A stretch of DNA of 37,358 nt from an uncultured Gammaproteobacteria bacterium (GCA_964412535.1 CAYPPF010000006.1:1-37358); one strand, 5' to 3'; positions 4,390-34,455 are shown, numbered from the stretch's first letter. The notes: generated by a model from the sequence alone, not told the origin. Numbers and translations: made by a program.

Positions 4390-4551
4390 ACTTGTCCTCT
4401 CCTGCACACCATAAATGATGAGCATGAGAGATTCCCGCAGCATGTTGCCACACCGCGGGAAAGATATCATCTCAGGGTTGCTCCTTGCGCGAAGTCTCGC
4501 ACTCAAAGCTATACTGAAACGAAATTCATGATTGACAGGAAGGAATCCTGA

Positions 4552-7101
4552 CTAGCAGCCGTTGACTGCGTCCTCGGGACATGGGTCAGCGCCGTCTTCG
4601 ACCTTGTCACCGTCGGTATCGGTACCTGGTGCGAACCACCAGTTGATACCGCTCATGCCGTTGTCCTTGTCGCCCACGGAAACGGCTTGGAAGGTGTTGA
4701 CACCATCGAAGTATGAATATGAGACGGTTCCGACCGTCCCACAGCCATCAGGGGGCTCGAAACATGAAGCCATATACACACCCGAAGGCTCGGCTTCGAT
4801 ATTCACCTTGCATTCGGTGATCAGGCCGCTGGCAACGGTACTATAGTTGAATACGACCGGTCCGTCGAACGGAGGGAGAAGTGTGTCCTTAACTCCCCAG
4901 GGCAAGGGCACTACATTCTGCCCCTTGCATTCAACCCAAAGCTTGAGCTCGGTGGTGCCACCTGGTACAGCCGCGGGAACGGTAACGTAGGTCAGATCGA
5001 ACTGCCCGATTTCAGGCGGGAGCACGCAGGTGCCGGTAGCGTCGCAAGCCTCGCCGTCCGCACAATCACCACATGAACCATTGCAACCATCATCGCCACA
5101 GGACTTACCATCGCAATCGGGAACGCAAGGTGCTTCGCATGCACCGTTAACACAGGTTTCACCCTGTGCACAATCTGCGTCGTCCATGCAGTCGGGACAG
5201 TTGTCCTGTCCCAGGCAGTCTGCGTCGTCGCAATCCACATCGCTGTCGCCATCGTTGTCCAGGCCGTCGCTGCACATGGATTCCGGGTTGCAGAAAGGTG
5301 ATCCGGCACAGCCGTCGTCATCGCAATCGGTAAGTCCATCCTGGTCGTTGTCAAGACCATCGCTGCAGTTGTCACCCTCCCCTTCGGGGCTGGGCTCGCA
5401 GACACCGGCGTTACAGGCCTCACCCATCTGGCAGTCGCCACATGAGCCGTTACAGCCATCATCGCCACAGGACTTGCCCACACAGTCGGGGACACACTGG
5501 ATAACGCAGAGGAAATCGATGCAATCGGCACCGGGAAGGCAATTGCCACACAGACCACCGCAACCGTCGTCGCCACACTGTTTGCCGTTGCAATCAGGAA
5601 CGCAGGGGTTACACATGGGGTCGTCGACACAAGAAGCGTCATCGCAGTCAACCTCACCGTTGCCGTTGTTGTCGATGCCGTCCGCGCAGTAGTCCGTGTT
5701 CTGCGGGTCCTTACACCCACTGGCCTCGGAGGTCTTGTCGCCATCCGAGCAAAACCACTCCTGGAACGGACCACACTCGATGAGCAATTCCCAGACGCCG
5801 AAACCGTTGCCTTCATCGAGGCACTCCCAGTATCCCAGGTTATCACTATCCTGAGGCTTGCGACAAGCAGGTCCGATGCTGTTACACCAGTCTGCTTCGC
5901 AGGCGCCGGCCACGCACTTGCCATCAGTACAGTCGGTACCGTCGGCTTCGTCGTCGTATACGCATTGGCCGGTCTGGAAGTCGCACCAGTCAGTGGTGCA
6001 TTCGTTGGCGTCATCACAATCGAGGAGTTGACCGGTACATTGGCCATTGACGCAGGTGTCGCCGTCGGTACAGAGATCCGTGTCATCGCACACCACATTG
6101 TCGAGCGGTGCGTTCTGACAGCCATCGGCCGGCGCACAGGTGTCTTCAGTACACTCGTTGGAGTCATCACAATCAAGTACTCCGTCCGAAGTGCAGGTCC
6201 CATCGGTACAAACATCACCGGTAGTGCAGGCATCTGCGTCGTCACAGACCGTTCCCTCCATCATGGCAGGATCGTTGACACAACCGGCTGCCGGATCGCA
6301 CGAATCCTCGGTACACTGGTTTGCGTCATCGCACTCGACCGGAGGACCCACGCAGTTGCCCTGTCCATCGCACTGGTCATCCATGGTACAGGGGTTGGCG
6401 TCGTCGCAGACCGTTCCTTCGAGAGCCATGCTGTAGATGCACTCTCCTACGGGACTGCACGAATCGGTGGTGCAGGGGTCGCTGTCGTCGCATTCGGCAT
6501 TCTCTTCGCAGGCCTGCGGGGGCACGCACTTGGCCCAATCCGGGTAAATACCGGAAATCTCGCAGGTTGCCTGCTCATCATCACAGGCCATGACCGTCGC
6601 GTACAGCGTGCATTCTCCCGTCTCTTCGGAACAGTCATAGGGGAGACAGGCCCACTTGCTGTCGTAGGGCACACCGTCGAGAGTCGCATCCCCACACCAG
6701 GTGGTATAGGGGGGTCCGCAGTTGCCATCGCCGTTGGAGTCCAGATCCGCTTCCTTCAACTCCACTTCCCCTTCCAGGGCGTGATACGAGGTAACATACC
6801 CCGTCTGATCCGGAAGCGCCACGCAACCGTTTGGGGTACAAACCCCGTCGCACCGGAAAGTGGTGCCGTCCTCTACGCGCTTGGCATACCAAACACTGTC
6901 CTTGGACATGAGGCACTTGTAGTCGCCCTTGTCCAGGACAACACTGCCCTGATCCTTGGCCTTCTGGTGCATTTCGGCCTTCTTGGCCTCGGGCACCTTG
7001 GAGATTTCCACTTCGGACTTTTTGGAGCTCTCCACTGCTCCGCAAGCCACCATAATTACGACCACCAGGGTCGCCACAGTGTACAACATTGCCTTTTTCA
7101 T
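4552..7101 (-). CDS. Very large secreted cysteine-rich repeat lipoprotein (849 aa)
   Basis: Start chosen at MKKAMLYTVATLVVVIMVAC (lipobox MVAC), preceded by GGAGGAacca. Contains many CDDxNxCTxDxC repeats, three CVPDCxGKxCGDDGCxGxCGxC units, CxDGxDNDxDGxxDCDDxxC units and a C-terminal TDTDGDKVEDGADPCP (thrombospondin type 3-like) motif. GC-rich codons. Confidence 0.8.
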   Translation of the reverse strand: MKKAMLYTVATLVVVIMVACGAVESSKKSEVEISKVPEAKKAEMHQKAKDQGSVVLDKGDYKCLMSKDSVWYAKRVEDGTTFRCDGVCTPNGCVALPDQTGYVTSYHALEGEVELKEADLDSNGDGNCGPPYTTWCGDATLDGVPYDSKWACLPYDCSEETGECTLYATVMACDDEQATCEISGIYPDWAKCVPPQACEENAECDDSDPCTTDSCSPVGECIYSMALEGTVCDDANPCTMDDQCDGQGNCVGPPVECDDANQCTEDSCDPAAGCVNDPAMMEGTVCDDADACTTGDVCTDGTCTSDGVLDCDDSNECTEDTCAPADGCQNAPLDNVVCDDTDLCTDGDTCVNGQCTGQLLDCDDANECTTDWCDFQTGQCVYDDEADGTDCTDGKCVAGACEADWCNSIGPACRKPQDSDNLGYWECLDEGNGFGVWELLIECGPFQEWFCSDGDKTSEASGCKDPQNTDYCADGIDNNGNGEVDCDDASCVDDPMCNPCVPDCNGKQCGDDGCGGLCGNCLPGADCIDFLCVIQCVPDCVGKSCGDDGCNGSCGDCQMGEACNAGVCEPSPEGEGDNCSDGLDNDQDGLTDCDDDGCAGSPFCNPESMCSDGLDNDGDSDVDCDDADCLGQDNCPDCMDDADCAQGETCVNGACEAPCVPDCDGKSCGDDGCNGSCGDCADGEACDATGTCVLPPEIGQFDLTYVTVPAAVPGGTTELKLWVECKGQNVVPLPWGVKDTLLPPFDGPVVFNYSTVASGLITECKVNIEAEPSGVYMASCFEPPDGCGTVGTVSYSYFDGVNTFQAVSVGDKDNGMSGINWWFAPGTDTDGDKVEDGADPCPEDAVNGC

Positions 7102-7266
7102 TGGTTCCTCCATGTTAAAGGCAGATTCAAAAAAGATGTGCTGCTAAACTTCAGCAGCTAGTTTCCTATCAATCAAATGTAACGATCGTGGGAAAAACAG
7201 ATTCCCAAATTGTATTTCTCAAGCGCATTGAGGAATATAATCTAGAAAATTGTACTTGTGTGTCCC

Positions 7267-7304
7267 TACCCGCACCCTGGACACGAAGTCGCAGGGTGCG
7301 GGTA
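7267..7304 (-). terminator. Strong GC-rich hairpin downstream of the 616-aa lipoprotein gene (no clear U-tract)
   Basis: 13-bp stem ACCCGCACCCTG.../...CAGGGTGCGGGT about 50 nt after the stop at 7355. Confidence 0.35.
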
Positions 7305-7354
7305 TAGGACACTGGAAGGAGGAACAGGCCCAGAAGAAAGGACCCTCGGGAAAA

Positions 7355-9205
7355 TCAAGGTTGTTTGCAAACCAGGTTGACACAGACCCACTCGGTGATG
7401 AGTCCGCAGACTTCAGTGACGACCCATACGCCACCCTGACATTCTGCCACAGTTTGCAGAGAAAGATCTCCGAAGGTCTTGCAGGCCTTCTCATCTTCCT
7501 CGCACTCTTGTGGTTCAACCAGAACAGGGGTACACTCTCCGACTACTTGCCCATTCTCCAGAACGGGCAGGCACTCGAAGTTGTCCGGGCAGTTGAACTC
7601 TTGGTTCTCACACTGCTCGGTCTGGACGTTGCAGAAGTCCACAGTGCACGGATCATCGTCTGAGCAGTCCTCAGGGCAGTTTGCCCCGATATCAACACAA
7701 TCTCCGGAAAACGCGTCGCACACCTGTCCCTGGTTGCAAGACAAGTTCGTGAAGACACACATGCCTTGGTCGCACATCTCCACGGTGCAGGGATTACCAT
7801 CTTCGCAGTCGGCCATGCCTTCGCAACCTGCAACAACGCATTGCGCATTCTGGCACATGGTGCCACCGACACAAGGTAAGCCCTGAGCCACGCACTTACC
7901 GCCATCGCAGTAGTCGAACGTGCAGTCGTTCTCGTCGTCACAGTCGACTGCTGTGAGACACCCCTGTGCTTCGCAATTTCCAGTGTTGGCATTGCAGAAA
8001 GTCCCTTCCCCGCAGGGTTTGGGATCGTGTACGCACTGCTCGGTCTGGGGATCGCAATAGTCCTTGGTGCACGGATCGTCGTCTGTGCAATTTTCCGGAC
8101 AGTTAGTGCCCAGCTTGACGCAATCGCCATCCATATCGCACACTTCGCCGTCATCGCATTCCTTGAGTTGGAATACGCACTGTCCTGCATCGCAGAAATC
8201 CTGCGTACACAGAACATTGTCGTCACAGTCCAGTGCGGACTGACAGACCGGTGAAGGCATACATGCTCCATCCTGACAGAACGTTCCGTTCCCGCATGAC
8301 ACGGGCTCGTACACGCACTTGAAAGTCTGTGGGTCACACGAGTCGTCAGTGCAGGGGTTGGAATCGTCGCATCCGTCGGTGCAATCTGTTGGTGCGTTGG
8401 TGCAAAACCAATCAAAGGGTGGAGCAGCGTCCACCACCACACAAAAATCAGTTGTGGTGGGGTCACCATCATCGCAATCCTTGGACTGGAACACGCACTG
8501 ACCAGTGTCAAGATCACACTGTCCAGGCATGCATGGGTTAGGACCCTCGCATGCCGCATGCGACTCGCACTTGAACACACACTCTGGCTCGCCTTCGAGC
8601 GCCATGCACTTGTGATACTTCGGACAAACGAACTTCTCGTGTTCGCAACTACCCGTCTGCACATTGCAGAAGTCCACAGTGCACGGATCGTCGTCTGCGC
8701 AGTTGCCACAATCCGTACTGGATATGTGGTGGCAATTGCCAGTGACTGATTCGCAGGTGTCCACGGTCTCCTCGTCCTCGTCGTCGCAATTGACGTCGAA
8801 GAATGAAAGCATTCCTGTGATCGGATCGCACACCGTAACAATGCACATATCCGAGATAAACGGGTCAGGCGGGCATTCCTTTACCGGAAACTTACATTCG
8901 CCGAGAACGCCCACGCACTCATACCCATCAGGGCACTTGTCTATGGAAACGCATTCGCCGTTCACGCACACCCCGATCTTACACACATCCTTGGTGTCAC
9001 ACTCAGCTGCTGATTTACAGCCTTCTTCTTCGACCGGTTCGGTCACGTCAGGCTTGGGCTCGACTTTCGGGCAATCATTACCCTCACAAACTACGGTTTC
9101 TTCACCCTTGTTCTGGGCGTTGACGTAGTCTGCCGTGCCACATCCGTTAATGAAAACTACGGTCGCAAGGACCAGGATCGAACTGATGCTCGAAAGCTTC
9201 TTCAT
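7355..9205 (-). CDS. Secreted cysteine-rich repeat lipoprotein (616 aa), paralogous in repeat type to 4552..7101
   Basis: Start chosen at MKKLSSISSILVLATVVFINGC (lipobox INGC), preceded by GGGGAGGAGtacc. Repeated DDDPCT(V/K)D(F/Y)C(N/D)xQTxxCxH units alternate with CxxGxxCxxGxC units. Confidence 0.8.
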   Translation of the reverse strand: MKKLSSISSILVLATVVFINGCGTADYVNAQNKGEETVVCEGNDCPKVEPKPDVTEPVEEEGCKSAAECDTKDVCKIGVCVNGECVSIDKCPDGYECVGVLGECKFPVKECPPDPFISDMCIVTVCDPITGMLSFFDVNCDDEDEETVDTCESVTGNCHHISSTDCGNCADDDPCTVDFCNVQTGSCEHEKFVCPKYHKCMALEGEPECVFKCESHAACEGPNPCMPGQCDLDTGQCVFQSKDCDDGDPTTTDFCVVVDAAPPFDWFCTNAPTDCTDGCDDSNPCTDDSCDPQTFKCVYEPVSCGNGTFCQDGACMPSPVCQSALDCDDNVLCTQDFCDAGQCVFQLKECDDGEVCDMDGDCVKLGTNCPENCTDDDPCTKDYCDPQTEQCVHDPKPCGEGTFCNANTGNCEAQGCLTAVDCDDENDCTFDYCDGGKCVAQGLPCVGGTMCQNAQCVVAGCEGMADCEDGNPCTVEMCDQGMCVFTNLSCNQGQVCDAFSGDCVDIGANCPEDCSDDDPCTVDFCNVQTEQCENQEFNCPDNFECLPVLENGQVVGECTPVLVEPQECEEDEKACKTFGDLSLQTVAECQGGVWVVTEVCGLITEWVCVNLVCKQP

Positions 9206-9384
9206 GGTACTCCTCCCCATTGGGTTCATTTCCTCATTTCTCCAAAACCACCTTACTACACTCAACTGCATATAAAAAACAATCAAATGCAGTAAGGCAG
9301 TTATATAGAGAATTCCTTCCGTTGTAATGAGCGGATTAAATGCTTAATCCCTCTTTACTACTAGCAAAGAAAGATAGTTGCACT

Positions 9385-10833: not shown

Positions 10834-10898
10834 GTTTAAAAAGGGATAAAAACACAAAATTGGCTAAAATAAGCCAATTTTTACTGTTTTTCTACTAC

Positions 10899-10930: not shown

Positions 10931-13900
10931 TTACTCTACTTTAGCAGCTCCCCCAGCATTTGATTGATCTTTTTCTGCTTCTTCTTTCTCTTTCTTGGAA
11001 AAATGCCTGATTGCTGCATCTTGAAAACTCTTTTCTAGATTGATTTGGAGACCTATTTTAAACTCAATATACTGTTTTTCAGGAGAAAGAGTACTTCTAC
11101 CTGATGGCACAAATTGAACACCTAAAATTCCCGCATCAAACTTGTCTAAAGAACTTCTCACTTTTGCCCACCCTTTTTCATCTTTTCTATGCTCTTCTAA
11201 TCCTGACGAAAAATTACGCAATGCACCCACTTGTCTTTCTAACAAATCTTTCCTAGTTTCCTTAAACCATTTTCTAGCCCATTCCAGTTGAGGAGCATTC
11301 ACCTTCTTGCTCTTGGCCGAACCCCTAACTAAGGATTCTAATTCACCAGGAGTAGTTAATAGCTTCTTTCCATGGCGCAAGAATGAAGCATAGTTTTCAG
11401 CCTCTTGTTTATCTGCCTTACTCCACTCTGAGTCATCTATTAAATTTTCTACTCTGTCTATCCCCTCTCCATATCCATCTGACTCTTCTTTTGGCTCTTC
11501 AGGAAGATGATGGTGTTTTACTTTTTCCCACCTATCCTCCAATGACATTGGCGTTTCGTGCGGTTCAATTTCACTAGTATCAATTTCTGGTTGATTAAAT
11601 TCTTGATCATCTACTGATTGTGTTCCACCTTTCTTTTTCTCTTCTTTTTTCTTTCGCTTCTTACGAGGTGACTTAGTTTTCTTTTTCTTTTTTTCTATCT
11701 TCTTTTTCTCTTCTTTCTCTGCCTCTGCTTTGACCTTGGCTTCTGCCTCTGCCTTCATTTTGGCTTTAACTTTCCCAAGCTTTTCTAAATCTTCTATTCC
11801 ACCATCTACTTCCATTCCTGTTCCCTCTATTCCTCCCCTGTCTACAAACAAGTATGGATCCTCATCTTCGCCCACATCTACATCTTCTGGATGATATTCG
11901 TGACCTGTCTTCTGTTTTTCTTTTCCTTCATGATCAAACTTCTTTTCAAAACTAGCTCCCCATATTACAACTGCAGCTATGCCAGCAGCCCAAAGTACTT
12001 TCTTCAATCTACCACCCCATTTCTTTGCTTTTTTAGTACCTAATTTTTTCTTTAACTCTGCCCTAGCCCTATCCAGTTTAACGCCTATCTTTTCTTTTTC
12101 AGGCTCTACTGATTCTGGATAGTGTCCTTCTACCGATGAAGGTGGAGGTCCATCTATTGATTCTAGTTTGACTCTAGTTACGAATTCCTTAAGAGCCTCA
12201 TTAAAATCTGTATTTCTTTCATATACATGTCTTCCATCATTAGCCTGACTGGCAAACTCACCCGTCTCCTTGTTGTATTCGCCATGCATTATATATTCAA
12301 TGGCAGGTGCACCATCAGGAGTATCCGAAGGCATTATCAGTGTATATTTTATTTCAAATTCCTCAGTATCTGGATTACTGACAAAGTTAAGTTCTGGCCC
12401 TTCACAATCTTCTATCCCCACACCAATCTCTTCCCTGTCAAAAGCATGAAAAACCTTTGCTTCACTATCATATGAACCCAATTCTCCTATTCTTTTTGCT
12501 ATTAGTTCTCCTTCCTTCCATTTACCTTCTTGTGGAAGCTCTCCTGAAACCTCCTTGATACCTTTACCGTCTAACACAACACCCTTACCAGTAATATATC
12601 TTACTAGACCGGTTAATTTAGTATCAGAATCCACCATAAAATCTGTAGCCCTTGCCAAAACAATTATGTCATCCCTATACTCCCCTTCCAAGATGCTACC
12701 ATCAGGGAATATCTTTTTACCATTAATAAACTTCCCATCTACAAAGTTACCTTCAAACTCTGTTGCACCAGGAAACTTTTGTTTACCTTGACCATGTAAT
12801 ACCCCCTCTTTCCATTTACCCTCCCTAGTACCATTACTATCTTCCACTTTTCCTTCTGATAACATCCCCTCCACAAATATACCTTCAGCTGTAAAGGGAG
12901 GATTTACAGAATTGTGTTTTCCTTCTCCCTCAAGAACTCCATCTTTCCAAACACCTTCAAAATATGAACCATCTGGAAATTCTAGTTTTCCCTGCCCCTT
13001 ACTTGGTATTTGTTCTCCAGCTCTTTCAACAGCCTTTCCTGTATACGTACCTCCAGCAAAATCTATACCCCCTTGTTCTCTTGCAGTTTCTCTTGCTTTT
13101 TTGTCAGCAGGCTCCTTTACCTCAAGCTTTCTTTCTATTGGGCTTGATTCAGGCGGAGGAGGAGGTCCAACAGGAGGAGAAGTTGGTGGTTCTACTTCAG
13201 TGCCAGGAACAGGAGGGGGCTCGACCACTGTACCTTCAGTAGCGGCACGTGTACTTGCCCTTTCTGTACTTTCAATCTGTATAACTTCTAGACTAATTTT
13301 CCCCTGCAACTCTTTAAGAGGATTTACTACTTCTTCTCTTATTCTAGAAACAATCCATTGCAACCTAGGCACCAAAGTCTTTGCTCTTTTTTTAGAATCT
13401 GAATACCAGGTAATGTAATTTAGGGTTTCCAACATTGCTTCAGTAATCAAGACATCTTTTTCTGAAATAGAAGATACTTGTCTGGCCAAAGTTTCATAAT
13501 CAGGATGACTAGCATCATCTAACTTTTGGACTCCCTTAAACAACTCGTCTTCTCTAGGAAAAACTTCTTTGTTAATTATCTCACTAAAATCACCCAAAGA
13601 AGTCTCGAAGTCTTCTTTCCTTTTTTCTAAATAAGATTTTGCCCCACCATCAGCATTCCATATCAATGTCTTCCACATCTGTTCTATCTTTTCACTTGTA
13701 AGCTCATCTTCTACTTCTACTAAATTAAACCCATCTAATTTTTCATACTCTTCAGGCCCTACAAACTCCTCTAATTCTTTTTCTATTGGATCAGGGTCTG
13801 AAACAGTAGAAGCATCTGGACTGAGTACACCTCCAAAATGTGTAATCTCTGATTCCGTACTTCTAACAATTGTTTCGTAATCGGCAACAATATCTCTTAT

Positions 13901-16900
13901 CCTACCCATACCAACCTTAAATAATCTTGACAAGCCCAGCTTTGCTTTCTTTCTTGAACTAGCAATATTAGGTGTATTATTTAACATGCCCTCTAAAAAA
14001 TCAGTCAAATCCACTTCCTGAGCTTCAATATAGCCTCGGCGTTCTTGAAAAACTCTCGCTCTGTTCGCCCCCGCCTTGTCATTAATTTCCTGGATATTAG
14101 TAGTCAGACGTCCTTTGAGAGGAAGCACTCTTTCACCATGTTTTCTCTTTAGCTCTCCCACAAACTGAGCAAAAATCTTTTTCTTGTCTCGTAAATAAAA
14201 TCTGACTACCGCACTTGATGCCTCTACTAACCTATCCCAAATCTCATTCAATTTCTCAATTGTAAGCTGTGAAAGTAAATCTTCTAAATTTCCATTAGAC
14301 TCTAACTCTTCATACTCAGGCTCAGTGGGTTCTTCTGGTTCAGATTCTTCACCAGATGAATCTAAGGTTGGTGGAATTACTTCAAGAGACTTGTGGTACG
14401 GGTTATACCCTGCTGGTTCACCACCTTCTGCCACTGAAGCAGGAGTTTCCTCTTCAGGAACATCCGGGACAGATTCTTTATCTGACTCAGTGAGCAGTCC
14501 TAACAAGTATAAATTACTTTCAGTCTTTTTATTAACCCACCTGACCATTTCCCATCCCATTATTAATAGATGTTCAAAGCCATCTTTCACCTCTTCTCTT
14601 GAAACAGCTATCTCCTGAATATTATTTAATCTTCCAGTTATATAATCAACTCTTTCTTGTTCTTCATTTATTTCTGCCTCATAATCTTTGTATATTCCAC
14701 CATCTAATTCATTTTTTTTCATATATTCCAACAACTGTTCCCTTGATGTGCTACTTTTTTCTTCTGCATCTCTCATTCCTTCGACAAACTTCTTGAAATA
14801 TTTTTTCAGACCTAATAAATGAAGTTTAGCTGCTATTCCTGATGCCTCCCTTAATCTGCCCCAAATTTCATCCACCTTCTCACCTGTAAGTTGGGCTAAT
14901 AGACCTTTCAACCCTTCACCAGATTTTAACTCCACATACCCTGATTCATCTGGCTCAGGTACCTCCACAGAAGGAGGAATTGTTTCTGCTGGCTCGACCA
15001 CTTCATCTCCAGATAGTACATCTGCTTCATCTTCACCATCATCTGACACTTCCCATTCAGAATCACCGAAACTATCAACAAACTCCTCAGGTGATTCTCC
15101 CAAAGCCAAAGCAGCCTCTGTTGGTAGTACCACCTCGGCAACACCAGCAAGGTCTTCAGTGCGTGCTTTTAGGATTTCCCACTCATCATTCTTATTTTCC
15201 TCTTCCATTACTTCCTTATATATCTCTATAAGTTTATCTGCAAAACCATCTGGCAATTTATCTTCTAAACCAGGTTTTTGTGATAAGGCACCTCTTAGCG
15301 CAGTGGCAGCCCCCTCTAGTGCAAATATATTTATATTTCCATCTTCTAATCTTTCCCAATTGCTCTTAAACCGATCCATGTGTAAACCATATAAATATTC
15401 ATCAGGACCTTCTATGTCTCTTGGCTCTGGTGCAGGTGGTTCATCATCAGGTGACTCTGTCCCCTCTACTAGCTGCCCTCCTGCCATTTTTCCATCACCA
15501 AGATCAATTGCTCTATGACGTGGTGGACCTGTTCTTGGCTTTACATCTAAAGGAATTGTTGGGACTGTTGGATCCTCATCATCAAAATCATCAAAGGTCT
15601 CTTCATCAAACCCAGAAACAGCCTCTTCAAAGATCCTGTCTGCGTCTTCTGTCGGTGTTAAGTCAATATCTGAATCATCTTCTTCATCCCCCAACAACTC
15701 TTCTGCATCTTCCACAGCTTTCCTTAAACGATCCGGGTCACTAGCTTGCTCAGATCTAAGACGACGATATAGTGCAACTAACTCGGGTACTTGATTTTCA
15801 ACTTCGTGCTGGAGGTTGACCTTGTTCAGCTCATCATCAATCTCATCCTGAGTATAGCCCCCTACTAATTTAAATTCTTCTTTGACTAGTTCGATAAACC
15901 TTTCTGTTACCTGTCTTAACAGACCAGACCAACCATCTATATATTCTTCTACTTTGGAAAGTTCTACTACCTCGTCTAGTCCTTTCTCCACCATGTCCCT
16001 TCTCAAAACAGGTACATTCAAAGGTTCATTATTTTCAACAAAAATATCAACCATCTCATACACCCTGTCTAGCATTCTCCTAACTTGTTCTTTTTTATTT
16101 CTTACCACCTCATCTTCCACCTCAACTGGTTCTTCTTCTGGCACTGCTTCCGGTTCTGGATCAGGAGGACTAGACATATCTTCAGCTTGTTGTAATAAAT
16201 CTTCAAATACTTTCTCATCAATACCCCTTTGTACGGCGTATGTGACTAAATCTTGCATTCTAGACTTTACTAAACTAGGATTTCTAAAACCAAACTCTTT
16301 TATAATATCCTCAGCAGCTGTCAAAAAGACAGTCTCACTAAGATCCAAATCTGTATCCACTCTTTCATTAGCATATCTCAAAGCTTCATCAGCTGATTCA
16401 ATATAGCCTATACCTAAATTCTCACTAAAAGCTCTTTGAATGAGTGCTTGCTCAGGCCAATCCATTAATATGCCTTTGCCAGCATAATAATCTTCAATTC
16501 CAGTAACTTTTTCATAATGGAACAAACCCCCTCTAAACAACTTATCTCTTTCTCCCTCTAAGTATTCTTTGCTAATCTCTACATCCAATGAAAGATCATT
16601 TATTATTTGTTCTAATGCAGGCAGATGTGCATCTTTCTCTCCATTCCAAAATCGAGCATTAAGTATAGAATTGCTATGCCTATTTTTGATAAACTCTCCA
16701 ACTTGCTTTCTAGCCTCTGGATGTTCTTGTAATTTTTCAAGTGTTTCCCTTATATCAGCAAATCCTTCTAAAATAGTTTTTTCATCAGTATCACGTAATT
16801 TTCTTGAACCAAATTTCTCTTCTAATTCTTTTAGCATTCCTTTTACTTCTTCACTTAACTCCACTTCCTCTTCTGGAGGAGAGACAACTGGTTCTGACTC

Positions 16901-18157
16901 TTCAGGAAGATCCTCTGGTACACTTTCTTCTTCCCTTTCTCCCTCTAATACAACCTCTCTTTTAAGAATCTTTTCTCCAAGTCTTTGTACTTGCAATCGT
17001 AAGGCTGGTATCTTCTCTTTTTCAATTACTCTCTTTATCTCTTCTAATTCTTCTTGTATTTCCTTTAATCTTTCTGAAGAAGCCTTATCAGTCTCATGCC
17101 TCAACCCTACAACTCTGTTTCCAATTTCTTTCCTTCGTGCCACAGGATCAACTACTGTCATCATCTCTCCCTCTTTCTGTCTAATATCGTTATCTATTTC
17201 TTCTAGCTCTCTTGATAGTAGTATTCTTGAATCTTCACTTAACTCCACTTCCTCTTCTGGAGGAGAGACAACTGGTTCTGACTCTTCAGGAAGATCCTCT
17301 GGTACACTTTCTTCTTCCCTTTCTCCCTCTAATACAACCTCTCTTTTAAGAATCTTTTCTCCAAGTCTTTGTACTTGCAATCGTAAGGCTGGTATCTTCT
17401 CTTTTTCAATTACTCTCTTTATCTCTTCTAATTCTTCTTGTATTTCCTTTAATCTTTCTGAAGAAGCCTTATCAGTCTCATGCCTCAACCCTACAACTCT
17501 GTTTCCAATTTCTTTCCTTCGTGCCACAGGATCAACTACTGTCATCATCTCTCCCTCTTTCTGTCTAATATCGTTATCTATTTCTTCTAGCTCTCTTGAT
17601 AGTAGTATTCTTGAATCTTCACTTAATTCAGCCACTTGAGCAACTAGACCTTCCCATGTTTCTTTCACTGTTTTTAACTTGTCAGCACCAATTGTATCAA
17701 TTTCATTTTTAAGGAGCTCGATCTGTCCTTTTATCTCCCCAATCTCCTTATCTATGGCAGCATCTGGTACTTCTTCTACCCCCTCTTCAACAGGAGCCTC
17801 TTCTGGGGTAGACTCTTTTTTAACCAGCTTTACCACCTCTTTTTCCATCACAACTTCCTCTATCATCCCCCTTATTTCTCTACGCTGAGGACTAGTAAGT
17901 TTTACTATAGCTCCCTTTCCATACAGCATGGACAGTACATCATTAACTACTTCTATGCCAATCTCTTCTCTTACTACTAATTCGCCTGTACTAGGATTTA
18001 CTTTTGGTTCGCCTGTACTAGGATCCTCTGTGTACCACTTCCATTTAAGGTTAGGGTTGTGTTTGTTCTTTTTTAAGAAAGCAGAAAGAATAGGTTTCAG
18101 TTCTTGAAACTTTTCTTCATTCATTATCATTCTGCGTTGTTTCTGTTCCTCTGACAT
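10931..18157 (-). CDS. Giant (2408 aa) acidic, coiled-coil-rich MORN-repeat protein with one predicted TM helix and a Lys-rich tail
   Basis: Uninterrupted ORF. MORN-like YxGxWxxGxxxGxG units are encoded at about 12490-13060 (GKLEFPDGSYFEGVWKDGVLEGEGK, GKWKEGVLHGQGKQKFPG...). The hydrophobic segment VLWAAGIAAVVIWGASF is encoded at about 11947-12006. A KKKIEKKKKKTKSPRKKRKKKEEKKK stretch follows. There is a 1-nt gap to the upstream gene. Confidence 0.85.
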   Translation of the reverse strand: MSEEQKQRRMIMNEEKFQELKPILSAFLKKNKHNPNLKWKWYTEDPSTGEPKVNPSTGELVVREEIGIEVVNDVLSMLYGKGAIVKLTSPQRREIRGMIEEVVMEKEVVKLVKKESTPEEAPVEEGVEEVPDAAIDKEIGEIKGQIELLKNEIDTIGADKLKTVKETWEGLVAQVAELSEDSRILLSRELEEIDNDIRQKEGEMMTVVDPVARRKEIGNRVVGLRHETDKASSERLKEIQEELEEIKRVIEKEKIPALRLQVQRLGEKILKREVVLEGEREEESVPEDLPEESEPVVSPPEEEVELSEDSRILLSRELEEIDNDIRQKEGEMMTVVDPVARRKEIGNRVVGLRHETDKASSERLKEIQEELEEIKRVIEKEKIPALRLQVQRLGEKILKREVVLEGEREEESVPEDLPEESEPVVSPPEEEVELSEEVKGMLKELEEKFGSRKLRDTDEKTILEGFADIRETLEKLQEHPEARKQVGEFIKNRHSNSILNARFWNGEKDAHLPALEQIINDLSLDVEISKEYLEGERDKLFRGGLFHYEKVTGIEDYYAGKGILMDWPEQALIQRAFSENLGIGYIESADEALRYANERVDTDLDLSETVFLTAAEDIIKEFGFRNPSLVKSRMQDLVTYAVQRGIDEKVFEDLLQQAEDMSSPPDPEPEAVPEEEPVEVEDEVVRNKKEQVRRMLDRVYEMVDIFVENNEPLNVPVLRRDMVEKGLDEVVELSKVEEYIDGWSGLLRQVTERFIELVKEEFKLVGGYTQDEIDDELNKVNLQHEVENQVPELVALYRRLRSEQASDPDRLRKAVEDAEELLGDEEDDSDIDLTPTEDADRIFEEAVSGFDEETFDDFDDEDPTVPTIPLDVKPRTGPPRHRAIDLGDGKMAGGQLVEGTESPDDEPPAPEPRDIEGPDEYLYGLHMDRFKSNWERLEDGNINIFALEGAATALRGALSQKPGLEDKLPDGFADKLIEIYKEVMEEENKNDEWEILKARTEDLAGVAEVVLPTEAALALGESPEEFVDSFGDSEWEVSDDGEDEADVLSGDEVVEPAETIPPSVEVPEPDESGYVELKSGEGLKGLLAQLTGEKVDEIWGRLREASGIAAKLHLLGLKKYFKKFVEGMRDAEEKSSTSREQLLEYMKKNELDGGIYKDYEAEINEEQERVDYITGRLNNIQEIAVSREEVKDGFEHLLIMGWEMVRWVNKKTESNLYLLGLLTESDKESVPDVPEEETPASVAEGGEPAGYNPYHKSLEVIPPTLDSSGEESEPEEPTEPEYEELESNGNLEDLLSQLTIEKLNEIWDRLVEASSAVVRFYLRDKKKIFAQFVGELKRKHGERVLPLKGRLTTNIQEINDKAGANRARVFQERRGYIEAQEVDLTDFLEGMLNNTPNIASSRKKAKLGLSRLFKVGMGRIRDIVADYETIVRSTESEITHFGGVLSPDASTVSDPDPIEKELEEFVGPEEYEKLDGFNLVEVEDELTSEKIEQMWKTLIWNADGGAKSYLEKRKEDFETSLGDFSEIINKEVFPREDELFKGVQKLDDASHPDYETLARQVSSISEKDVLITEAMLETLNYITWYSDSKKRAKTLVPRLQWIVSRIREEVVNPLKELQGKISLEVIQIESTERASTRAATEGTVVEPPPVPGTEVEPPTSPPVGPPPPPESSPIERKLEVKEPADKKARETAREQGGIDFAGGTYTGKAVERAGEQIPSKGQGKLEFPDGSYFEGVWKDGVLEGEGKHNSVNPPFTAEGIFVEGMLSEGKVEDSNGTREGKWKEGVLHGQGKQKFPGATEFEGNFVDGKFINGKKIFPDGSILEGEYRDDIIVLARATDFMVDSDTKLTGLVRYITGKGVVLDGKGIKEVSGELPQEGKWKEGELIAKRIGELGSYDSEAKVFHAFDREEIGVGIEDCEGPELNFVSNPDTEEFEIKYTLIMPSDTPDGAPAIEYIMHGEYNKETGEFASQANDGRHVYERNTDFNEALKEFVTRVKLESIDGPPPSSVEGHYPESVEPEKEKIGVKLDRARAELKKKLGTKKAKKWGGRLKKVLWAAGIAAVVIWGASFEKKFDHEGKEKQKTGHEYHPEDVDVGEDEDPYLFVDRGGIEGTGMEVDGGIEDLEKLGKVKAKMKAEAEAKVKAEAEKEEKKKIEKKKKKTKSPRKKRKKKEEKKKGGTQSVDDQEFNQPEIDTSEIEPHETPMSLEDRWEKVKHHHLPEEPKEESDGYGEGIDRVENLIDDSEWSKADKQEAENYASFLRHGKKLLTTPGELESLVRGSAKSKKVNAPQLEWARKWFKETRKDLLERQVGALRNFSSGLEEHRKDEKGWAKVRSSLDKFDAGILGVQFVPSGRSTLSPEKQYIEFKIGLQINLEKSFQDAAIRHFSKKEKEEAEKDQSNAGGAAKVE
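16848..17626. repeat. Perfect tandem direct repeat, 2 x 384 bp plus 11 bp, in frame inside the giant gene
   Basis: Manual comparison shows 16848-17231 and 17232-17615 are identical. They encode an identical 128-aa unit (LSEDSRILLSRELEEIDNDIRQKEG...PVVSPPEEEVE) twice. Confidence 0.95.
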
Positions 18158-26715: not shown

Positions 26716-27112
26716 GGGGATGACAGGATTCGATGGACGGATCCGTTATCTATCATATGCATGTCGAGGTTGTACCCTATCCTCGTTAATACTAGGATAC
26801 ATGAGATAAGTGTAAACTTAACCTCAAGAGTGAAGAATGCTTTAGCTAACGCTTTTAGTGTTCCTTCATTCGCATCTGCTGTCGCTTAATTGCGACTGCC
26901 ATCGCTACCATGATACTCAATACTGGATCAGCGGTGTAAATCCATTGAGTGTAGGGCTAGATCACCGCCTTGTAATCTAGTCTGAAATCAAACAAGGCTA
27001 GCTATATACTTTTTTGTCGCTTTCAAGGTATTTAGCAAGAAAACAAAGCGTCTAAGCATGTAGATTATGGAGGTAGCCCGCTCAGACCCGGGTTCAATTC
27101 CCGGCATCTCCA
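26716..27112 (+). ncRNA. ssrA: tmRNA (SsrA)
   Basis: The 5' end GGGGATGACAGGATTCGATGGACGG pairs with the 3' end CATCTCC, followed by discriminator A. T-arm is CCGGG-TTCAATT-CCCGG. A candidate tag ORF at about 26839-26889 (ALANAFSVPSFASAVA*) ends in the usual hydrophobic Ala-rich tail. CCA is not encoded. Confidence 0.9.
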
Positions 27113-27119
27113 CAAAATT

Positions 27120-29142: not shown

Positions 29143-29216
29143 GGACCGGTAGTTCAATTGGTTAGAGCACCGCCCTGTCACGGCGGAAGTTGCGAGTTCG
29201 AGTCTCGTCCGGTCCG
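29143..29216 (+). tRNA. tRNA-Asp (anticodon GTC)
   Basis: Manual cloverleaf: acceptor GGACCGG/CCGGTCC, D-arm GTTC..GAGC, anticodon stem CCGCC/GGCGG with loop CTGTCAC, T-arm GCGAG-TTCGAGT-CTCGT, discriminator G. CCA is not encoded. Confidence 0.95.
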
Positions 29217-29226
29217 CATTCAAAAT

Positions 29227-30164: not shown

Positions 30165-33100
30165 TTATGTAGCTAATTCAGTAAGTAATTCACCGTCAGT
30201 ATATTCCTCAGCTTCACCTACTGTTACGATTCTGTCCCATCTGAAGTTAAGGGACTCAAATGTAGGTTCATCTGGAATATATCTCTTTACTTGTAGTTCT
30301 GTGTCTTCTGGATCTGGTTCTAGTCTGTATACCTTAGGGTTGTCTTCATACTTGATTAAGGTATAGTTTGGATGATGATCAGTGTAACTGATCTCTGATC
30401 CTAGAGTGTACTTGTCTAGTAATCCTTCTGCAATGTCTTCGATCCAGTTCCATGCGTAGTTAAGGGTCTCGAATACTACTTCTGAAGTTATCCAATACTT
30501 TTCTGTACCTAGTAATAGGTAGACCTTTGGATCAGTTACTATCTTTACTAGAGCACCGTACTTAGGGTCATATTTAGGGCCCCAAGGCATGAAGCCTAGA
30601 GTGTCGTTAGTAATAGCATCTATTTCTGTTTCTGTTATTACCACTACATCTGACCAACCATCGAAGTAGGTGAAGAACACGTCAGATCGTTTAAAGGCCC
30701 GTTTAGTACAGTCTGAGGTGATGTAGTAGACAGCTGGTGAGCCAAGGTGTTTGTATGCTCCACCTTTGGTCAGATCGCATTCTACTTCTTCTTCTACTAC
30801 TTCTTCTACCACTATCTCCTGGTCAAAGCTTTGACCGGTCAGTGTAATGGTGTCATTGGTGTTTGTAGTACCACCGTCTGTAGACCTGAACTTTACATAT
30901 ACTGTCTTTACTCCGTTGCCTTCGGTCAATGTCCAATCTGATGTGGTTGTGTAATCTACATACGACACGTTGGTGAAATCATTTTCATTAGAAATTGCCA
31001 TTTCAGTAACTCCTGTAGAGTTCATATAAAGTAAAACAGCTTGGCTCGATACTTCTGACAACCCCTGTGCTATTGAAAACTCCAACTCCCCTACTGCGAC
31101 AACTGTCAAGTCTACTACACTCGCGTCGCTACTATCTAATTTAACTAATAAGTCATATTCGCCATCGCTATCTGTATCAACAAGTTCTTCTTCGCCCGGT
31201 GCCAGTGTAACTGTAACTGGATCAGATTCAATAGTAATAGTAACTGTACCGTCCTCTGCAGGGGTCCCTACTGTAATGGTATGAGTGCTACCACCAATAG
31301 AAATTGATTCACTTGTGCCTGGAGGAAGACTGACTTCTGAGGTAGCTAAAGCGTCTGCAGAAGACTCTTGTGTTGTATCTTCGTCTGTGGTGTCTTCCGC
31401 AGGTGTGGCAGGGACAGACGATGATGAGCCACCTGACCCACCGAACACACAAGCGTTTGTTTGTCCAGATACAGTACTTGAATAGCTTGTTTCAGTATTA
31501 TCTCCATTTCTTGCTTTCACACGGAAAGAATAACTACGACTACAATTTAGTCCAGTAAACGTATATGTTGAATCTGATGTCCACCCTGAGTTTACGTCGT
31601 CAGTCATGTTGTCAATATAGTGGGATGTGGAAGAGCTAGACCAAGCTACGGTAATTTGTCCTGAGCCTCCAGTGGTTATAACTGATGATGGAGCGGTAGC
31701 TAGAGTATACTTTGATGTAGCAGTAGTCAAACTTGACTCATTGGAGGTAGTTGCATTATCCTTAGTCTTCACTTGGAAAGTATAAAGAGTATTTACTGAT
31801 AGTGAACTCACAGTCCAATCAGTACTTGCTTGCCAGCCGTCAGTACTAGATGCAACTGTTTCTAAAAAATAGTATGGAGTAGCATGCAGACCAGCATTAT
31901 CATCACTGGCTGCAGAAGTGCTCAGAGCAATAGAGCTGGTTGTTATAGTTCCAAAAGAAATCGCCGCTCCAGTAGGAGCATCGCCATCATACTTGATTGT
32001 ATAAGTATCAAAATTAGTAGAATTTTCATTATCAGCATTTTGTGAGATTATATGCACATACCATGTTCCACTGTCATCAATCGTTTCTGCAGCAACTGAA
32101 AAAGTACCATCCGCATCTTCGGTGCCTGCTGCCACTTGTGCGGCCGTTGGAGAGGCTGTCTGATTAACTAAATAGTGATAGTGTGTGGTTGATGAATCAT
32201 CACTCGTCAAACTCATATCAGGTGTTGTATCATTATACCAAGTCACTTCAGAGGCATGAGAGGTGCTTTGGAGTACAGGATCTATAGCCAAAACATTTTC
32301 ATAAGCACCTATGTCATAGTACGTTAACGTGCCAGCCCCACCATCAGCAACACTTGGTTGATCATATCTCTGCTTTCCCAAATAATCAGTAGTTGGAGTA
32401 CTAGTATTACTAGTTCCCCTGTCTATGCAAGGAGAGCTAGCTTGAAGGGTAAAATTATTAGTAGAAGTACTCATGAAGAGAGGATCTTGAGCAATACCGT
32501 CTAAATTCGCCTCTGACCCATCACCACCTTGAAAATCTGTGGTGTTACTATACATATTATTGTGTGACATGGTCAGCTCACTTGTGTTACCAGCACCTGA
32601 GAACCAAATTGCTTCTTCGTGATCAAAAAGAATCGTGTTATACAGAGTGGTAGTACTCTGAATAAACAGCCCACGATCGTTATTATACAAAACACTATTT
32701 CTAATGGTTGATGTTACACCATCACGAACTGCAATGGCAAACTTGTTTTCAGGTATACTAAAAAGTACTAAATTATCAATAGTTAAAGTTGTCCCGCTTG
32801 CAGTATCAATTGCATGTCCCACTGTGGAGGATATTGTTGTTTCCGTAACTGTGACAGTACTCGCACCATCTATATCTATTGCACTATCACCACATACACC
32901 CAATGAAGTGGAATCAGCCGTTGTTATACTACCCCCATCCACATACACACAATCCCCTGTTTGATTAGTAGAGGTGACATTGCTTAGAGCAATGGTTCCA
33001 GTCGAATCTGTATAAATACCAGTGGTTCCTCCTGTAATGGTGGTATTTGTAATACTACCACTCTGATCATTCTCAAATTGAATATTACTGGCATTTGATG

Positions 33101-33731
33101 TAAAGGTGCTGCTAGTGATCGTAGTAGTGCCTCCTGTCCCATTTGCCGCATACAAAACCCAGACACCATAGCTAGTGTTATTAGAAACTGTAACGTTATC
33201 TAAAGTTATCTGGGCAGTAAAAATATTATTAACACCTGACACATTACCGGAAAAAGTACCTGTATTTACCACTGCTGTCGCACCTCTATGCAAAGACAGT
33301 CCATCATCTCCATTATTACTCCCAATTATTGAATTATATGTAGCGGTTGAAGTGGCAGCCTGTTTAAACCCATCATTATCCGCACCATATGATTCACAAT
33401 CATTTACAATTATACCACTACTTAGTCCAGCCACATCAAAATTATTTTCATTACCATTCCTAAGAACAATATCTTGAACAGTTATATAATTCTTAGTATT
33501 AATCAAAATGATATTATCCCTTTGATTTGCCTCAATATTACCACCTGTTGGATCACCACCAATATTAACATACAAAAGATTGGTATCCCAATCCCATTCA
33601 CTAGCCCCCAAAGTCCCAAAATTCCCGTCATTCTCTGTCAATGCTGTTGTACTATTAAGCACATAGTCTGTTTCTGTTGTAAGGGCGATCTTGTAAATAT
33701 TACCAGCATGCTGCGTCCAACTTCCACTCAA
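30165..33731 (-). CDS. Large surface protein with right-handed parallel beta-helix repeats, FN3-like domains and a C-terminal domain; downstream portion of an interrupted gene
   Basis: 1188-aa ORF. The track start is a TTG, and the frame stays open upstream to 33776. It has beta-helix-type repeats rich in N, G, T and S, FN3-like segments (TLYTFQVKTKDNATTSNES, YSFRVKARNGDNTETSYSS) and no signal peptide of its own. Confidence 0.75.
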   Translation of the reverse strand: MSGSWTQHAGNIYKIALTTETDYVLNSTTALTENDGNFGTLGASEWDWDTNLLYVNIGGDPTGGNIEANQRDNIILINTKNYITVQDIVLRNGNENNFDVAGLSSGIIVNDCESYGADNDGFKQAATSTATYNSIIGSNNGDDGLSLHRGATAVVNTGTFSGNVSGVNNIFTAQITLDNVTVSNNTSYGVWVLYAANGTGGTTTITSSTFTSNASNIQFENDQSGSITNTTITGGTTGIYTDSTGTIALSNVTSTNQTGDCVYVDGGSITTADSTSLGVCGDSAIDIDGASTVTVTETTISSTVGHAIDTASGTTLTIDNLVLFSIPENKFAIAVRDGVTSTIRNSVLYNNDRGLFIQSTTTLYNTILFDHEEAIWFSGAGNTSELTMSHNNMYSNTTDFQGGDGSEANLDGIAQDPLFMSTSTNNFTLQASSPCIDRGTSNTSTPTTDYLGKQRYDQPSVADGGAGTLTYYDIGAYENVLAIDPVLQSTSHASEVTWYNDTTPDMSLTSDDSSTTHYHYLVNQTASPTAAQVAAGTEDADGTFSVAAETIDDSGTWYVHIISQNADNENSTNFDTYTIKYDGDAPTGAAISFGTITTSSIALSTSAASDDNAGLHATPYYFLETVASSTDGWQASTDWTVSSLSVNTLYTFQVKTKDNATTSNESSLTTATSKYTLATAPSSVITTGGSGQITVAWSSSSTSHYIDNMTDDVNSGWTSDSTYTFTGLNCSRSYSFRVKARNGDNTETSYSSTVSGQTNACVFGGSGGSSSSVPATPAEDTTDEDTTQESSADALATSEVSLPPGTSESISIGGSTHTITVGTPAEDGTVTITIESDPVTVTLAPGEEELVDTDSDGEYDLLVKLDSSDASVVDLTVVAVGELEFSIAQGLSEVSSQAVLLYMNSTGVTEMAISNENDFTNVSYVDYTTTSDWTLTEGNGVKTVYVKFRSTDGGTTNTNDTITLTGQSFDQEIVVEEVVEEEVECDLTKGGAYKHLGSPAVYYITSDCTKRAFKRSDVFFTYFDGWSDVVVITETEIDAITNDTLGFMPWGPKYDPKYGALVKIVTDPKVYLLLGTEKYWITSEVVFETLNYAWNWIEDIAEGLLDKYTLGSEISYTDHHPNYTLIKYEDNPKVYRLEPDPEDTELQVKRYIPDEPTFESLNFRWDRIVTVGEAEEYTDGELLTELAT

Positions 33732-33749
33732 GTTGTCAGAACCATAATG

Positions 33750-33968
33750 ACCTCCTCCCCGGGTTCCGGCTAGCGCCTACACCCGGGGTTTCCTTTTCTT
33801 GGCATGAGAACACAACTAACGTTGTGTTCTCATGCAACTAGCTTGCCACAGTATTACATCTGTGGCAAGTATGGCACCATTCCTACCCCGGACTCCAACC
33901 AAAGCACCCCCTTCGGGGTGCATCTATCGTCTGTCGGCTTTGATTTCCGTCCGGGGTTGTCCTGGAAG
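33750..33968 (-). other. GC-rich, highly structured insert of about 220 nt splitting the beta-helix gene (candidate intron, ribozyme-like element or MITE); boundaries +/-20 nt
   Basis: Four strong hairpins: a 15-bp perfect stem at 33802-33835, a 10-bp stem at 33842-33869, a 7-bp stem at 33904-33921 nested inside CCCCGGAC/GTCCGGGG (33886-93/33949-56), and CCCCGGG/CCCGGGG (33757-63/33782-88). Three in-frame TAG codons. The flanking ORFs are in the same frame. Confidence 0.6.
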
Positions 33969-34325
33969 ATGTAAAAACACTGGATTATCTCCAGTGCCAT
34001 AGGAACCAAAAGTAATTTGGTTACTTGCATCTCCTGATGAAGGAACTGTCAAAGTTTCACGCCAAACCTCACCTTTTTGAAAACTGATAGTATCTCCTGG
34101 ACTAAAACTTTCCCCATTCACCTTACTAAGTGTTTTCCAAGCATTACCTTCTGAAAGACCATCACTTCCATCATTTCCATCTGTTGCATCTACATAGTAT
34201 GTGGTTCCTGCGGCTCTTACCTCTTTTGACCCCTGGGTAATCCAAACAATCATGCCTATATAGACAGATACTAATACACAAAACAAAACTGAAATTTTTG
34301 ATTCAAACATCTCTCGACGGAACAT
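33924..34325 (-). CDS. N-terminal portion (signal peptide plus beta-helix cap) of the interrupted surface protein gene
   Basis: MFRREMFESKISVLFCVLVSVYIGMIVW (signal/anchor), then AAGTTYYVDATDGNDGSDGLSEGNAWKTLSKVN...ITFGSYGTGDNPVF, the usual N-terminus of beta-helix proteins. The ORF then reads into the insert and stops at the TAG at 33924-33926. Confidence 0.7.
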   Translation of the reverse strand: MFRREMFESKISVLFCVLVSVYIGMIVWITQGSKEVRAAGTTYYVDATDGNDGSDGLSEGNAWKTLSKVNGESFSPGDTISFQKGEVWRETLTVPSSGDASNQITFGSYGTGDNPVFLHLPGQPRTEIKADRR

Positions 34326-34455
34326 ACCAAACAAACACAGATTATTCCTTGATTTATTTTATTAAAGTATACTACAATTTGACGAAATAGTAAATAGCAC
34401 CATCAAAATGTGCATCTTTAGCCAAATCTTTCTGTTTACTGTCCAATATTAAACA

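Follow-up and report, generated by a model that had tools for sequence, protein, structure and literature searches.

What is the hairpin-rich stretch that divides a surface-protein gene in frame on contig CAYPPF010000006.1 (GCA_964412535.1), whose 37,358 nt were analyzed in full and are referred to here as the window? An initial annotation had described the interval as a GC-rich, four-hairpin, RNA-like insert complementary to the upstream exon, and had offered three readings of it: a self-splicing or otherwise excised element, a translational bypass cassette, or a structured miniature inverted-repeat transposable element (MITE) that had made the gene a pseudogene. We conclude, with a probability of about 0.93, that the insert is a non-autonomous insertion sequence (IS) of the IS200 type (IS200/IS605 family), which has lost its core together with the transposase gene tnpA, resembles the palindrome-associated transposable elements (PATEs), and interrupts the surface-protein gene. 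The RNA-like features that gave the insert its first description belong to the IS, and the complementarities to the upstream exon are either at chance level or intrinsic to the IS.

A surface-protein gene interrupted in frame

The two parts of the gene lie in one reading frame, as had been proposed. The N-terminal open reading frame (ORF), 34334..33924, runs on into the element and terminates at the first of three in-frame TAG codons (33926-24, 33818-16, and 33779-77), and the downstream ORF of 1188 aa (33731..30165), which has Pfam matches to Beta_helix (7e-15) and fn3 (8e-7), shares its frame. The three TAG positions, the higher GC content of the insert (0.54 vs 0.39–0.41 in the gene), and the CAT codons at 33971-69 and 33749-47, 222 nt apart, were likewise as first described. 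The common frame itself deserves less weight than it had been given, since an in-frame length of 225 nt has a one-in-three prior.

Exact removal of the element, with position 33971 joined to 33745 (TTAC^ to the flank that follows CATT^, where ^ marks a cleavage position), produces a single ORF of 1,314 codons that reads ...GDNPVFLHGSDNLSGSW... at the joint. Alignment of the joined protein to a homolog, a check suggested at the outset, gave a collinear match across the joint with the closest homolog, P0002 (55% identity, one single-residue gap). The frame is preserved only by a cut at TTAC^ or by a cut 3 or 6 nt upstream of it; shifting the cut by 1 or 2 nt disrupts the frame. The limits of the element are 33970..33746 and not 33971..33750 as first given. 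The empty-site junction is predicted to be CCAGTGTTTTTAC^ATGGTTCTGAC, and the junction of a circle joining the right end to the left end is predicted to be GGAGGAGGTCATT^ATCTTCCAGG.

An exact look-up of the 133-aa N-terminal ORF in public assemblies recovered the same ORF and the same left junction in five other assemblies (L001–L005). Public look-ups of the 1188-aa downstream ORF and of two 56-aa ORFs inside the element returned no record. As a separate observation, the homolog P0002 (164 aa, L006:156-650) is followed 12 nt downstream by the start of a 658-aa Beta_helix ORF (663-2639), forming a second split beta-helix gene; no IS lies between the parts at that locus, and the split could represent a frameshift, a stop codon, or a sequencing error.

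The insert contains the two ends of a 659-nt IS

Downstream genes in two of the five assemblies match Pfam Y1_Tnp, the IS200/IS605 transposase family, and in L004 a 149-aa ORF stands between the left 148 nt of the insert and its right part. The autonomous element is 659 nt long and consists of a structured left end, a tnpA gene for a Y1/HUH transposase of 149 aa, and a right end. This TnpA, encoded by the full copies L004 and L008–L013 (Y1_Tnp E=1.3e-28), aligns with the IS608 TnpA structure 2a6m (E=7.8e-13), and in this alignment the HUH motif (HVH) is in register, as is the catalytic Tyr (RRYIEWQ vs KQYIENQ). Full copies that share the ends of the insert exactly or nearly exactly are present at other loci (L008–L013 and L064), so that the search for further copies, also suggested at the outset, did find near-identical ones in intergenic DNA of related metagenome contigs; no second copy was found within the window. 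L004 was considered as a case of the full IS inside the surface-protein gene and was rejected, because this contig is chimeric and carries the right flank and the single-nucleotide state of another copy.

Apart from a single-nucleotide difference at 33884 and the 4-nt loop of hairpin C, the parts of the element are identical to the full copy L008:818-1476. Nucleotides 1–148 of the element match the full IS except at 33884, and include 137 nt of IS-type hairpins that make up the left end; the last 86 nt match except in the loop of hairpin C, which is GTTA here and TAAC in the full copies. These two parts overlap by 9 nt (GAGAACACA). Relative to the full IS, the window copy is short of 434 nt, essentially all of tnpA, and the missing segment lies between 9-nt direct repeats of GAGAACACA at the start and end of tnpA. 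The 9-nt overlap of the two parts points to a repeat-mediated deletion. What is left of tnpA is five codons, ATG AGA ACA CAA CGT TAG (33833-33816), and the element is too short to encode a transposase. Coordinates of the element, the gene, and the full copies with defined surroundings are collected in Table 1.

Table 1. Positions of the element and its parts, of the interrupted gene, and of full copies of the IS at other loci.
Feature	Position	Strand	Description or basis
Element, read as tnpA-less IS200-type (PATE-like), 225 nt	33746..33970	minus	left-end nt 1-148 fused to last 86 nt of 659-nt IS, 9-nt overlap
N-terminal fragment of beta-helix surface-protein gene	33924..34334	minus	hydrophobic N-terminus, then start of right-handed beta helix; 133-aa ORF
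Rest of gene: right-handed beta helix, fn3, long C-terminal region	30165..33745	minus	frame still open
Target/left cleavage tetranucleotide TTAC	33971..33974	minus	stays in flank, outside element; left flanks and reading frame
Terminator-like hairpin CACTGG-agataat-CCAGTG, then TTTTT	33973..33996	minus	in coding sequence just upstream of insertion point
Hairpin A, left-end long-range stem CCCCGGAC/GTCCGGGG	33886..33956	minus	folds; encloses mid stem with U.G pair and inner hairpin
Inner hairpin GCACCCCGAAGGGGGTGC, then TTTGGTT	33904..33921	minus	terminator scan: terminator-like on gene-sense strand
Hairpin B, 10 bp, loop ATGTAATA	33842..33869	minus	in full copies, the stem-loop immediately before the tnpA start codon
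Hairpin C, 15 bp, loop GTTA	33802..33835	minus	tnpA start-codon region paired with sequence just 3' of tnpA stop codon
Hairpin D, right-end subterminal palindrome CCCCGGGT...ACCCGGGG, GGAAA before	33757..33788	minus	covariation
Right-end tail AGGAGGTCATT, ending at right cleavage site	33746..33756	minus	five different flanks after CATT^
Full copy, L008 and L012			between DUF1622 gene and Vut_1 gene
Full copy, L010 and L011			between hypothetical gene and HU gene
Full copy, L064			after apparent tRNA gene 3' end and terminator-like hairpin

A potential concern is whether a repeat-induced mis-join or collapse during assembly placed the ends of an IS in an intact gene. Contigs with this IS are indeed often chimeric or broken inside it: L004 joins the left flank of the gene to the body and right flank of another copy, L013 is a scaffold with an N-gap, and L002, L003, and L005 end inside the element. 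An artefact is nevertheless improbable. Five independent assemblies agree on the left junction, a repeat of 9 nt would not suffice to collapse a de Bruijn graph, and both flanks continue one protein supported by a homolog. In addition, the whole mini element, with its private single-nucleotide difference and flipped loop, occurs again in L001, which comes from a different sample, and this recurrence indicates that the mini form is real and not the product of assembly collapse. In L001 (1539-2296) the mini element is followed by another right flank that continues into a fragment of a second tnpA, IS200-like but unrelated (69 aa, Y1_Tnp); the right side of this locus is either a chimeric join made via the shared right end or a second copy adjoining another IS.

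Transposase relatives numbered about 50 in a scan of one genome per species, most of them labelled as metagenome-assembled genomes of the candidate phyla radiation (CPR)/Patescibacteria (Magasanikbacteria, Paceibacterota, Saccharibacteria, and others). In one of the related loci (L031:1387-2615), two copies of a related IS stand head to tail, ...GCGTCACT, CT, then ATTAGAGG..., a tandem insertion adjoining a resident right end.

Ends, target and insertion site

The ends of the element were defined by comparison of flanks. Each of the four independent left flanks has TTTAC^ as its last bases (gtgTTTTTAC^, cggTTTTTTAC^, ttgTTTTTAC^, and gtgCTTTAC^), and on the right five different flanks follow ...GGAGGAGGTCATT^ (...GGTCATT^). 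A cut at TTTTT^, with the element starting at AC, was ruled out by the reading frame and by the L064 flank CTTTAC. The distance from the cut to the foot of the left hairpin is 14 nt (cut 5'), and that from the foot of the right hairpin to the cut is 11 nt (cut 3'). The left and right subterminal stems have a common foot, AAACCCCG/CGGGG, and both stems covary across the family.

Elements of the IS200/IS605 kind, which are single-strand transposons of the "peel and paste" type, have neither terminal inverted repeats nor target-site duplications, and neither was found. The first 30 nt and the reverse complement of the last 30 nt are identical in register at 10 of 30 positions, the best local match between the termini being 6 nt (CCCCGG), and 0–1 nt is shared at the two junctions in the three complete copies (window, L008, and L010). 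These results bear upon the possibility of a classical MITE with terminal inverted repeats (e.g. IS630/Tc1-like) and a TA or TTA target duplication, in favor of which one can cite that the insert is short, structured, and non-coding, that it lies in a gene, and that TTA is present near both junctions. Such an element is among the least likely explanations, given that the termini share only CCCCGG, that no flank is duplicated in the three complete copies, and that the ends belong to an IS encoding a Y1 transposase. A TTA duplication would also mean an insertion of 227 nt and a broken frame. Duplication of TTA or TA as the target was for these reasons rejected, as other copies have no duplication either. 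The initial suggestion of a structured MITE that produced a pseudogene holds insofar as the insert is a miniature transposable element with near-identical intergenic copies; it does not hold as to type, the insert being a core-deleted IS with neither terminal inverted repeats nor a target duplication.

The insertion site lies in an unusual sequence context. Hairpins followed by TTTAC occur at 2 of the 265 TTAC sites in the whole window, one being the insertion site and the other near 10884 (+). Among the IS relatives at loci L008–L064, 25 of 36 distinct left flanks place the element directly behind an intrinsic-terminator-like hairpin and T-run, compared with 3% of control positions. In the window, the insertion site mimics, within coding sequence, the intrinsic terminators behind which this IS family normally lands. 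A limited literature search turned up no description of a terminator-site preference for IS200-type elements. The top (active) strand is the G-rich strand with all the large ORFs; this is the orientation that would be expected if the active strand lay on the lagging-strand template.

Hairpins of the element and their conservation

The four strong hairpins reported at the outset were confirmed, the insert folding far beyond chance as RNA (z = -8.1 sense, -8.5 antisense) and as DNA (sense strand, z = -9.5). The G.U pair said to form only on the gene-sense strand is indeed present there, as a U.G pair in the AAUCAAAGC/GCUUUGGUU helix. In hairpin A the outer stem corresponds to the left subterminal palindrome of IS608, and 12 family members retain it with compensatory changes. 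Hairpin B has a stem conserved with compensatory changes and a loop whose sequence is not conserved; for the outer stem of A and hairpin B taken together, compensatory changes are found at 14 of 20 pairs (12 sequences). At the right end, hairpin D has compensatory changes at 6 of 10 pairs (18 family members) with an invariant GGAAA flank, and the tail (GGGG)AGGAGGTCATT is present in 16 of the 18.

Hairpin C holds both the deletion joint (the 9-nt repeat, at 33831-33823) and the five-codon remnant of tnpA, and in the mini element it has a tetraloop in place of tnpA. A start/stop stem of this kind, differing in sequence, is found in most of 44 loci, and because this stem supplied the repeats, it also supplied the route by which tnpA was lost from the window copy. 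The stem could sequester the tnpA start codon in the mRNA, or it could unite both ends in single-stranded DNA. It is formed in the full copy by L008:960-975 with 1405-1420 and has equivalents in L014–L047; the start region is CATGAG plus 5–10 nt, and compensatory changes are seen between ISs. Judged from these patterns of covariation, the four hairpins can be explained as transposase-binding and tnpA-regulatory structures that are conserved across the IS family.

The strong structure of the insert, together with a length that is a multiple of three, had suggested a self-splicing or otherwise RNA-excised element (a group I- or group II-like intron, a small ribozyme, or an IStron-like chimera), with the gene remaining functional. 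A precedent exists in the IStrons, in which a group I intron is fused to an IS200/IS605-type IS and the ribozyme splices the element from the mRNA (PMC4227781). The element described here is like the IStrons in being IS200/IS605-related and in residing within a protein-coding gene, and unlike them in having no group I match and in being far too small. Searching Rfam 15 for intron and ribozyme families, as had been recommended, gave no relevant match: at the gathering score the whole window contained only a tmRNA and a tRNA, and at E<=10 over 33500-34300 and E<=1 over the full IS copy there was only sub-threshold hairpin noise and no Intron_gpI. Furthermore, the structure is equally strong on both strands, and the helices are accounted for by the transposase-binding and tnpA-regulatory structures of the IS family. 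The identical sequence also lies between genes behind terminators, a setting in which splicing would serve no purpose, and the hairpins, the GGAGG tail, and the CAT repeats of the junction are all found in such intergenic copies. Excision at the RNA level thus has a very small probability.

The complementarity to the upstream exon can be assessed in the same manner. Two 8-nt segments of the insert do pair exactly with two segments of the exon where this had been indicated, and it is their significance as exon pairing that does not stand. The GTGCCATA/TATGGCAC match is at chance level, since 16% of random 60-nt windows of this sequence hold an 8-mer complementary to the element; in the flanks of copies L008 and L010 there was no complement of at least 7 nt to the element. 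The AGATGTAA/TTACATCT match sets the loop of hairpin B (33854-33861) against its exact complement at 33967-33974, the left junction TTAC^ATCT. Half of that junction is the target TTAC and half is the first 4 nt of the element, and the pairing is therefore found in all copies, independent of the flank. No equivalent was found in two related ISs whose ends are defined from multiple copies, and the complementarity is probably fortuitous. A lineage-specific role for the pairing is nonetheless conceivable, since extended pairing between left end and target can be engineered in IS608 (PMC5934647).

The CAT codons at the junctions

The matched CAT codons, lying in one frame with a Shine-Dalgarno (SD)-like sequence before the second, had raised the possibility of a programmed translational bypass, with take-off at CAT 33971-69 and landing at CAT 33749-47 aided by GGAGGAGG just upstream of the landing codon. 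In the bypass of phage T4 gene 60, identical codons flank a gap of about 50 nt, a stop codon directly follows the take-off codon, and an SD-like sequence precedes the landing site. The window locus resembles gene 60 in having identical codons at both edges of the gap and an SD-like sequence before the second. It differs in the 222-nt gap, which is several times that of gene 60, and in the absence of a stop after take-off; here the take-off CAT is followed by CTT CCA GGA, and the first stop comes 15 codons later. Moreover, these features are explained by transposon ends that recur intergenically. The CAT repeat is made up of TTAC and the initial AT of the element on the left and of the conserved tail ...TCATT on the right. 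The SD-like GGAGGAGG is present as described; as an RNA signal it loses its meaning, because it belongs to the nearly invariant right-end tail of the IS family and is found there whatever lies downstream. Bypass therefore ranks with the classical MITE at the bottom of the explanations considered.

The join of the right end to the gene has a peculiarity of its own. At 33725-33756 (minus), the right-end tail and the gene together read GGAGGAGGTCATT^ATG GTT CTG ACA ACT TGA. The result is an ORF of five codons that has a strong SD-like sequence and ends in a TGA overlapping, as TTGA, with the in-frame TTG at 33731 in the 1188-aa ORF. In other copies of the element the corresponding position lacks an ATG. 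It is conceivable that re-initiation would yield a hypothetical, N-terminally truncated protein.

History of the element and effect on the gene

These data suggest a history in which a 434-nt repeat-mediated deletion would have removed tnpA, leaving the left end (hairpins A and B), stem C, and the right end (hairpin D and the tail). The element lies 3' of TTAC on the gene-sense strand, just after the hairpin and T-run in the coding sequence. Translation of the surface protein would reach the first TAG after 15 codons of the element and end there, and the terminator-like hairpin of the left end probably halts transcription too. On the strength of the stop codon and the likely stop in transcription, the interrupted gene is most likely inactivated. 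Because excision of IS200/IS605 elements is exact, the 1,314-codon ORF could be regained if a full copy provided TnpA in trans and the 225 nt were cut out.

Several points weigh against the assignment of the insert to a core-deleted IS200-type element or limit what can be built upon it. The mini element may have moved here already shortened, or it may have lost its core at this site. The junction of the right end with the gene is backed by the window alone, the other assemblies breaking in the element or switching to the flanks of other copies. The full copies and the window are associated only by co-occurrence in the same sampling series (SUTE22-1); the source samples comprise the SUTE22-1 and SCRA20-1 series and JGI 3300008625, 3300009374, and 3300009375. 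For the candidate guides, ACAA on the left and GAAA on the right, no convincing fit to TTAC and CATT could be made with the pattern of IS608, and there was no clear covariation of guide and cleavage sequences in three related ISs with defined ends. Neither an empty-site allele nor a circle junction was found when metagenome_contigs was scanned twice, with a left-end 24-mer and with a gapped empty-site pattern; the 24-mer scan missed the element itself, which indicates that this collection probably does not contain the organism, and the result is not evidence of absence. Two scans of viral_contigs likewise found nothing, which again is not evidence of absence.

Two further proposals concern the state of the gene. 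The first is that it is still expressed, the 225-nt remnant being removed from the mRNA, bypassed, or re-initiated over. The in-frame length, the matched CAT codons, and the SD-like tail that creates GGAGGAGGTCATT^ATG might each aid such post-transcriptional neutralization, and if it did take place the IS200-type end would be a new kind of device for rendering an insertion harmless at the RNA level. We consider this highly improbable, somewhat less so than excision or bypass taken singly. The second, a milder variant, is a DNA-level on/off switch, in which the surface protein would be toggled by exact TnpA-mediated excision and re-insertion at the terminator-mimicking hairpin; this is a tentative proposal and unlikely on balance, though with a better claim than any of the alternatives discussed above.

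Other features of the window

A tmRNA at 26716-27115 (+) (143 bits, tag peptide ATAIATMILNTGSAV) and a tRNA-Asp(GTC) at 29143-29217 (+) are the only RNA genes found in the window, and both are on the strand opposite to all the large ORFs. A perfect direct repeat of 300 nt (16848-17147 and 17232-17531, with a spacing of 384 nt) lies inside a 2408-aa ORF (10931-18157). The region at approximately 4500-9300 has a GC content of 0.52–0.59, compared with 0.35–0.43 elsewhere, and contains large minus-strand ORFs of diverged repeats of about 90–100 nt.

Discussion

The closest parallel to the element is provided by the PATEs, transposase-less derivatives of IS200/IS605-type elements that were first described in Haloquadratum walsbyi, and for which an origin from IS605-type elements through repeat-mediated core deletion has been documented (PMC3119063). 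As in the PATEs, terminal inverted repeats and a target duplication are both absent, palindromes are located near both termini, and the element is too short for a transposase. The host here differs from Haloquadratum in being a bacterium, probably of the CPR/Patescibacteria, and the case differs further in that the parent is an IS200-type element with tnpA only and that one mini copy is documented.

The parent IS can be compared with IS200 of Salmonella and other Enterobacteriaceae, which is 707 bp long, contains tnpA only, and has a left-end terminator that blocks impinging transcription as well as a stem-loop in the tnpA leader (PMC4513863). Shared with IS200 are the size class (659 nt), the single Y1 transposase gene, the terminator-like hairpin of the left end, and, immediately before the tnpA start, a further stem-loop. 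The two ISs have unrelated end sequences, and, unlike in IS200, the start-codon region pairs with sequence after the stop codon; there was no art200-like Rfam match in the full IS copy.

IS608 of Helicobacter pylori has subterminal hairpins whose distance from the cuts is 19 nt on the left and 10 nt on the right (PMC3201880), inserts 3' of TTAC without duplication and is excised exactly, and also carries tnpB (PMC3201880, PMC5934647). Its guide tetranucleotides follow the rule AAAG/TTAC and GAAT/TCAA (PMC5934647). The IS described here is like IS608 in inserting 3' of TTAC without duplication, in the placement of its hairpins (14/11 nt vs 19/10 nt), and in its homologous TnpA with conserved HUH motif and Tyr. 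It is unlike IS608 in having no tnpB, in that the guide rule could not be mapped onto ACAA/TTAC and GAAA/CATT, and in its strong preference for sites behind terminator hairpins.

The insertion is thus a routine transposon event with little at stake, and the locus is a candidate neither for an intron nor for recoding. It should be annotated as a mobile-element remnant, and the surface-protein gene as interrupted. The case also calls for caution, in that the ends of IS200/IS605 elements resemble structured RNA and may sit in frame within a gene. For the mobile DNA of the CPR/Patescibacteria, the analysis brings to light an IS200 lineage that lands almost always behind intrinsic-terminator hairpins and that keeps a covarying stem between the start and the stop of its transposase gene.

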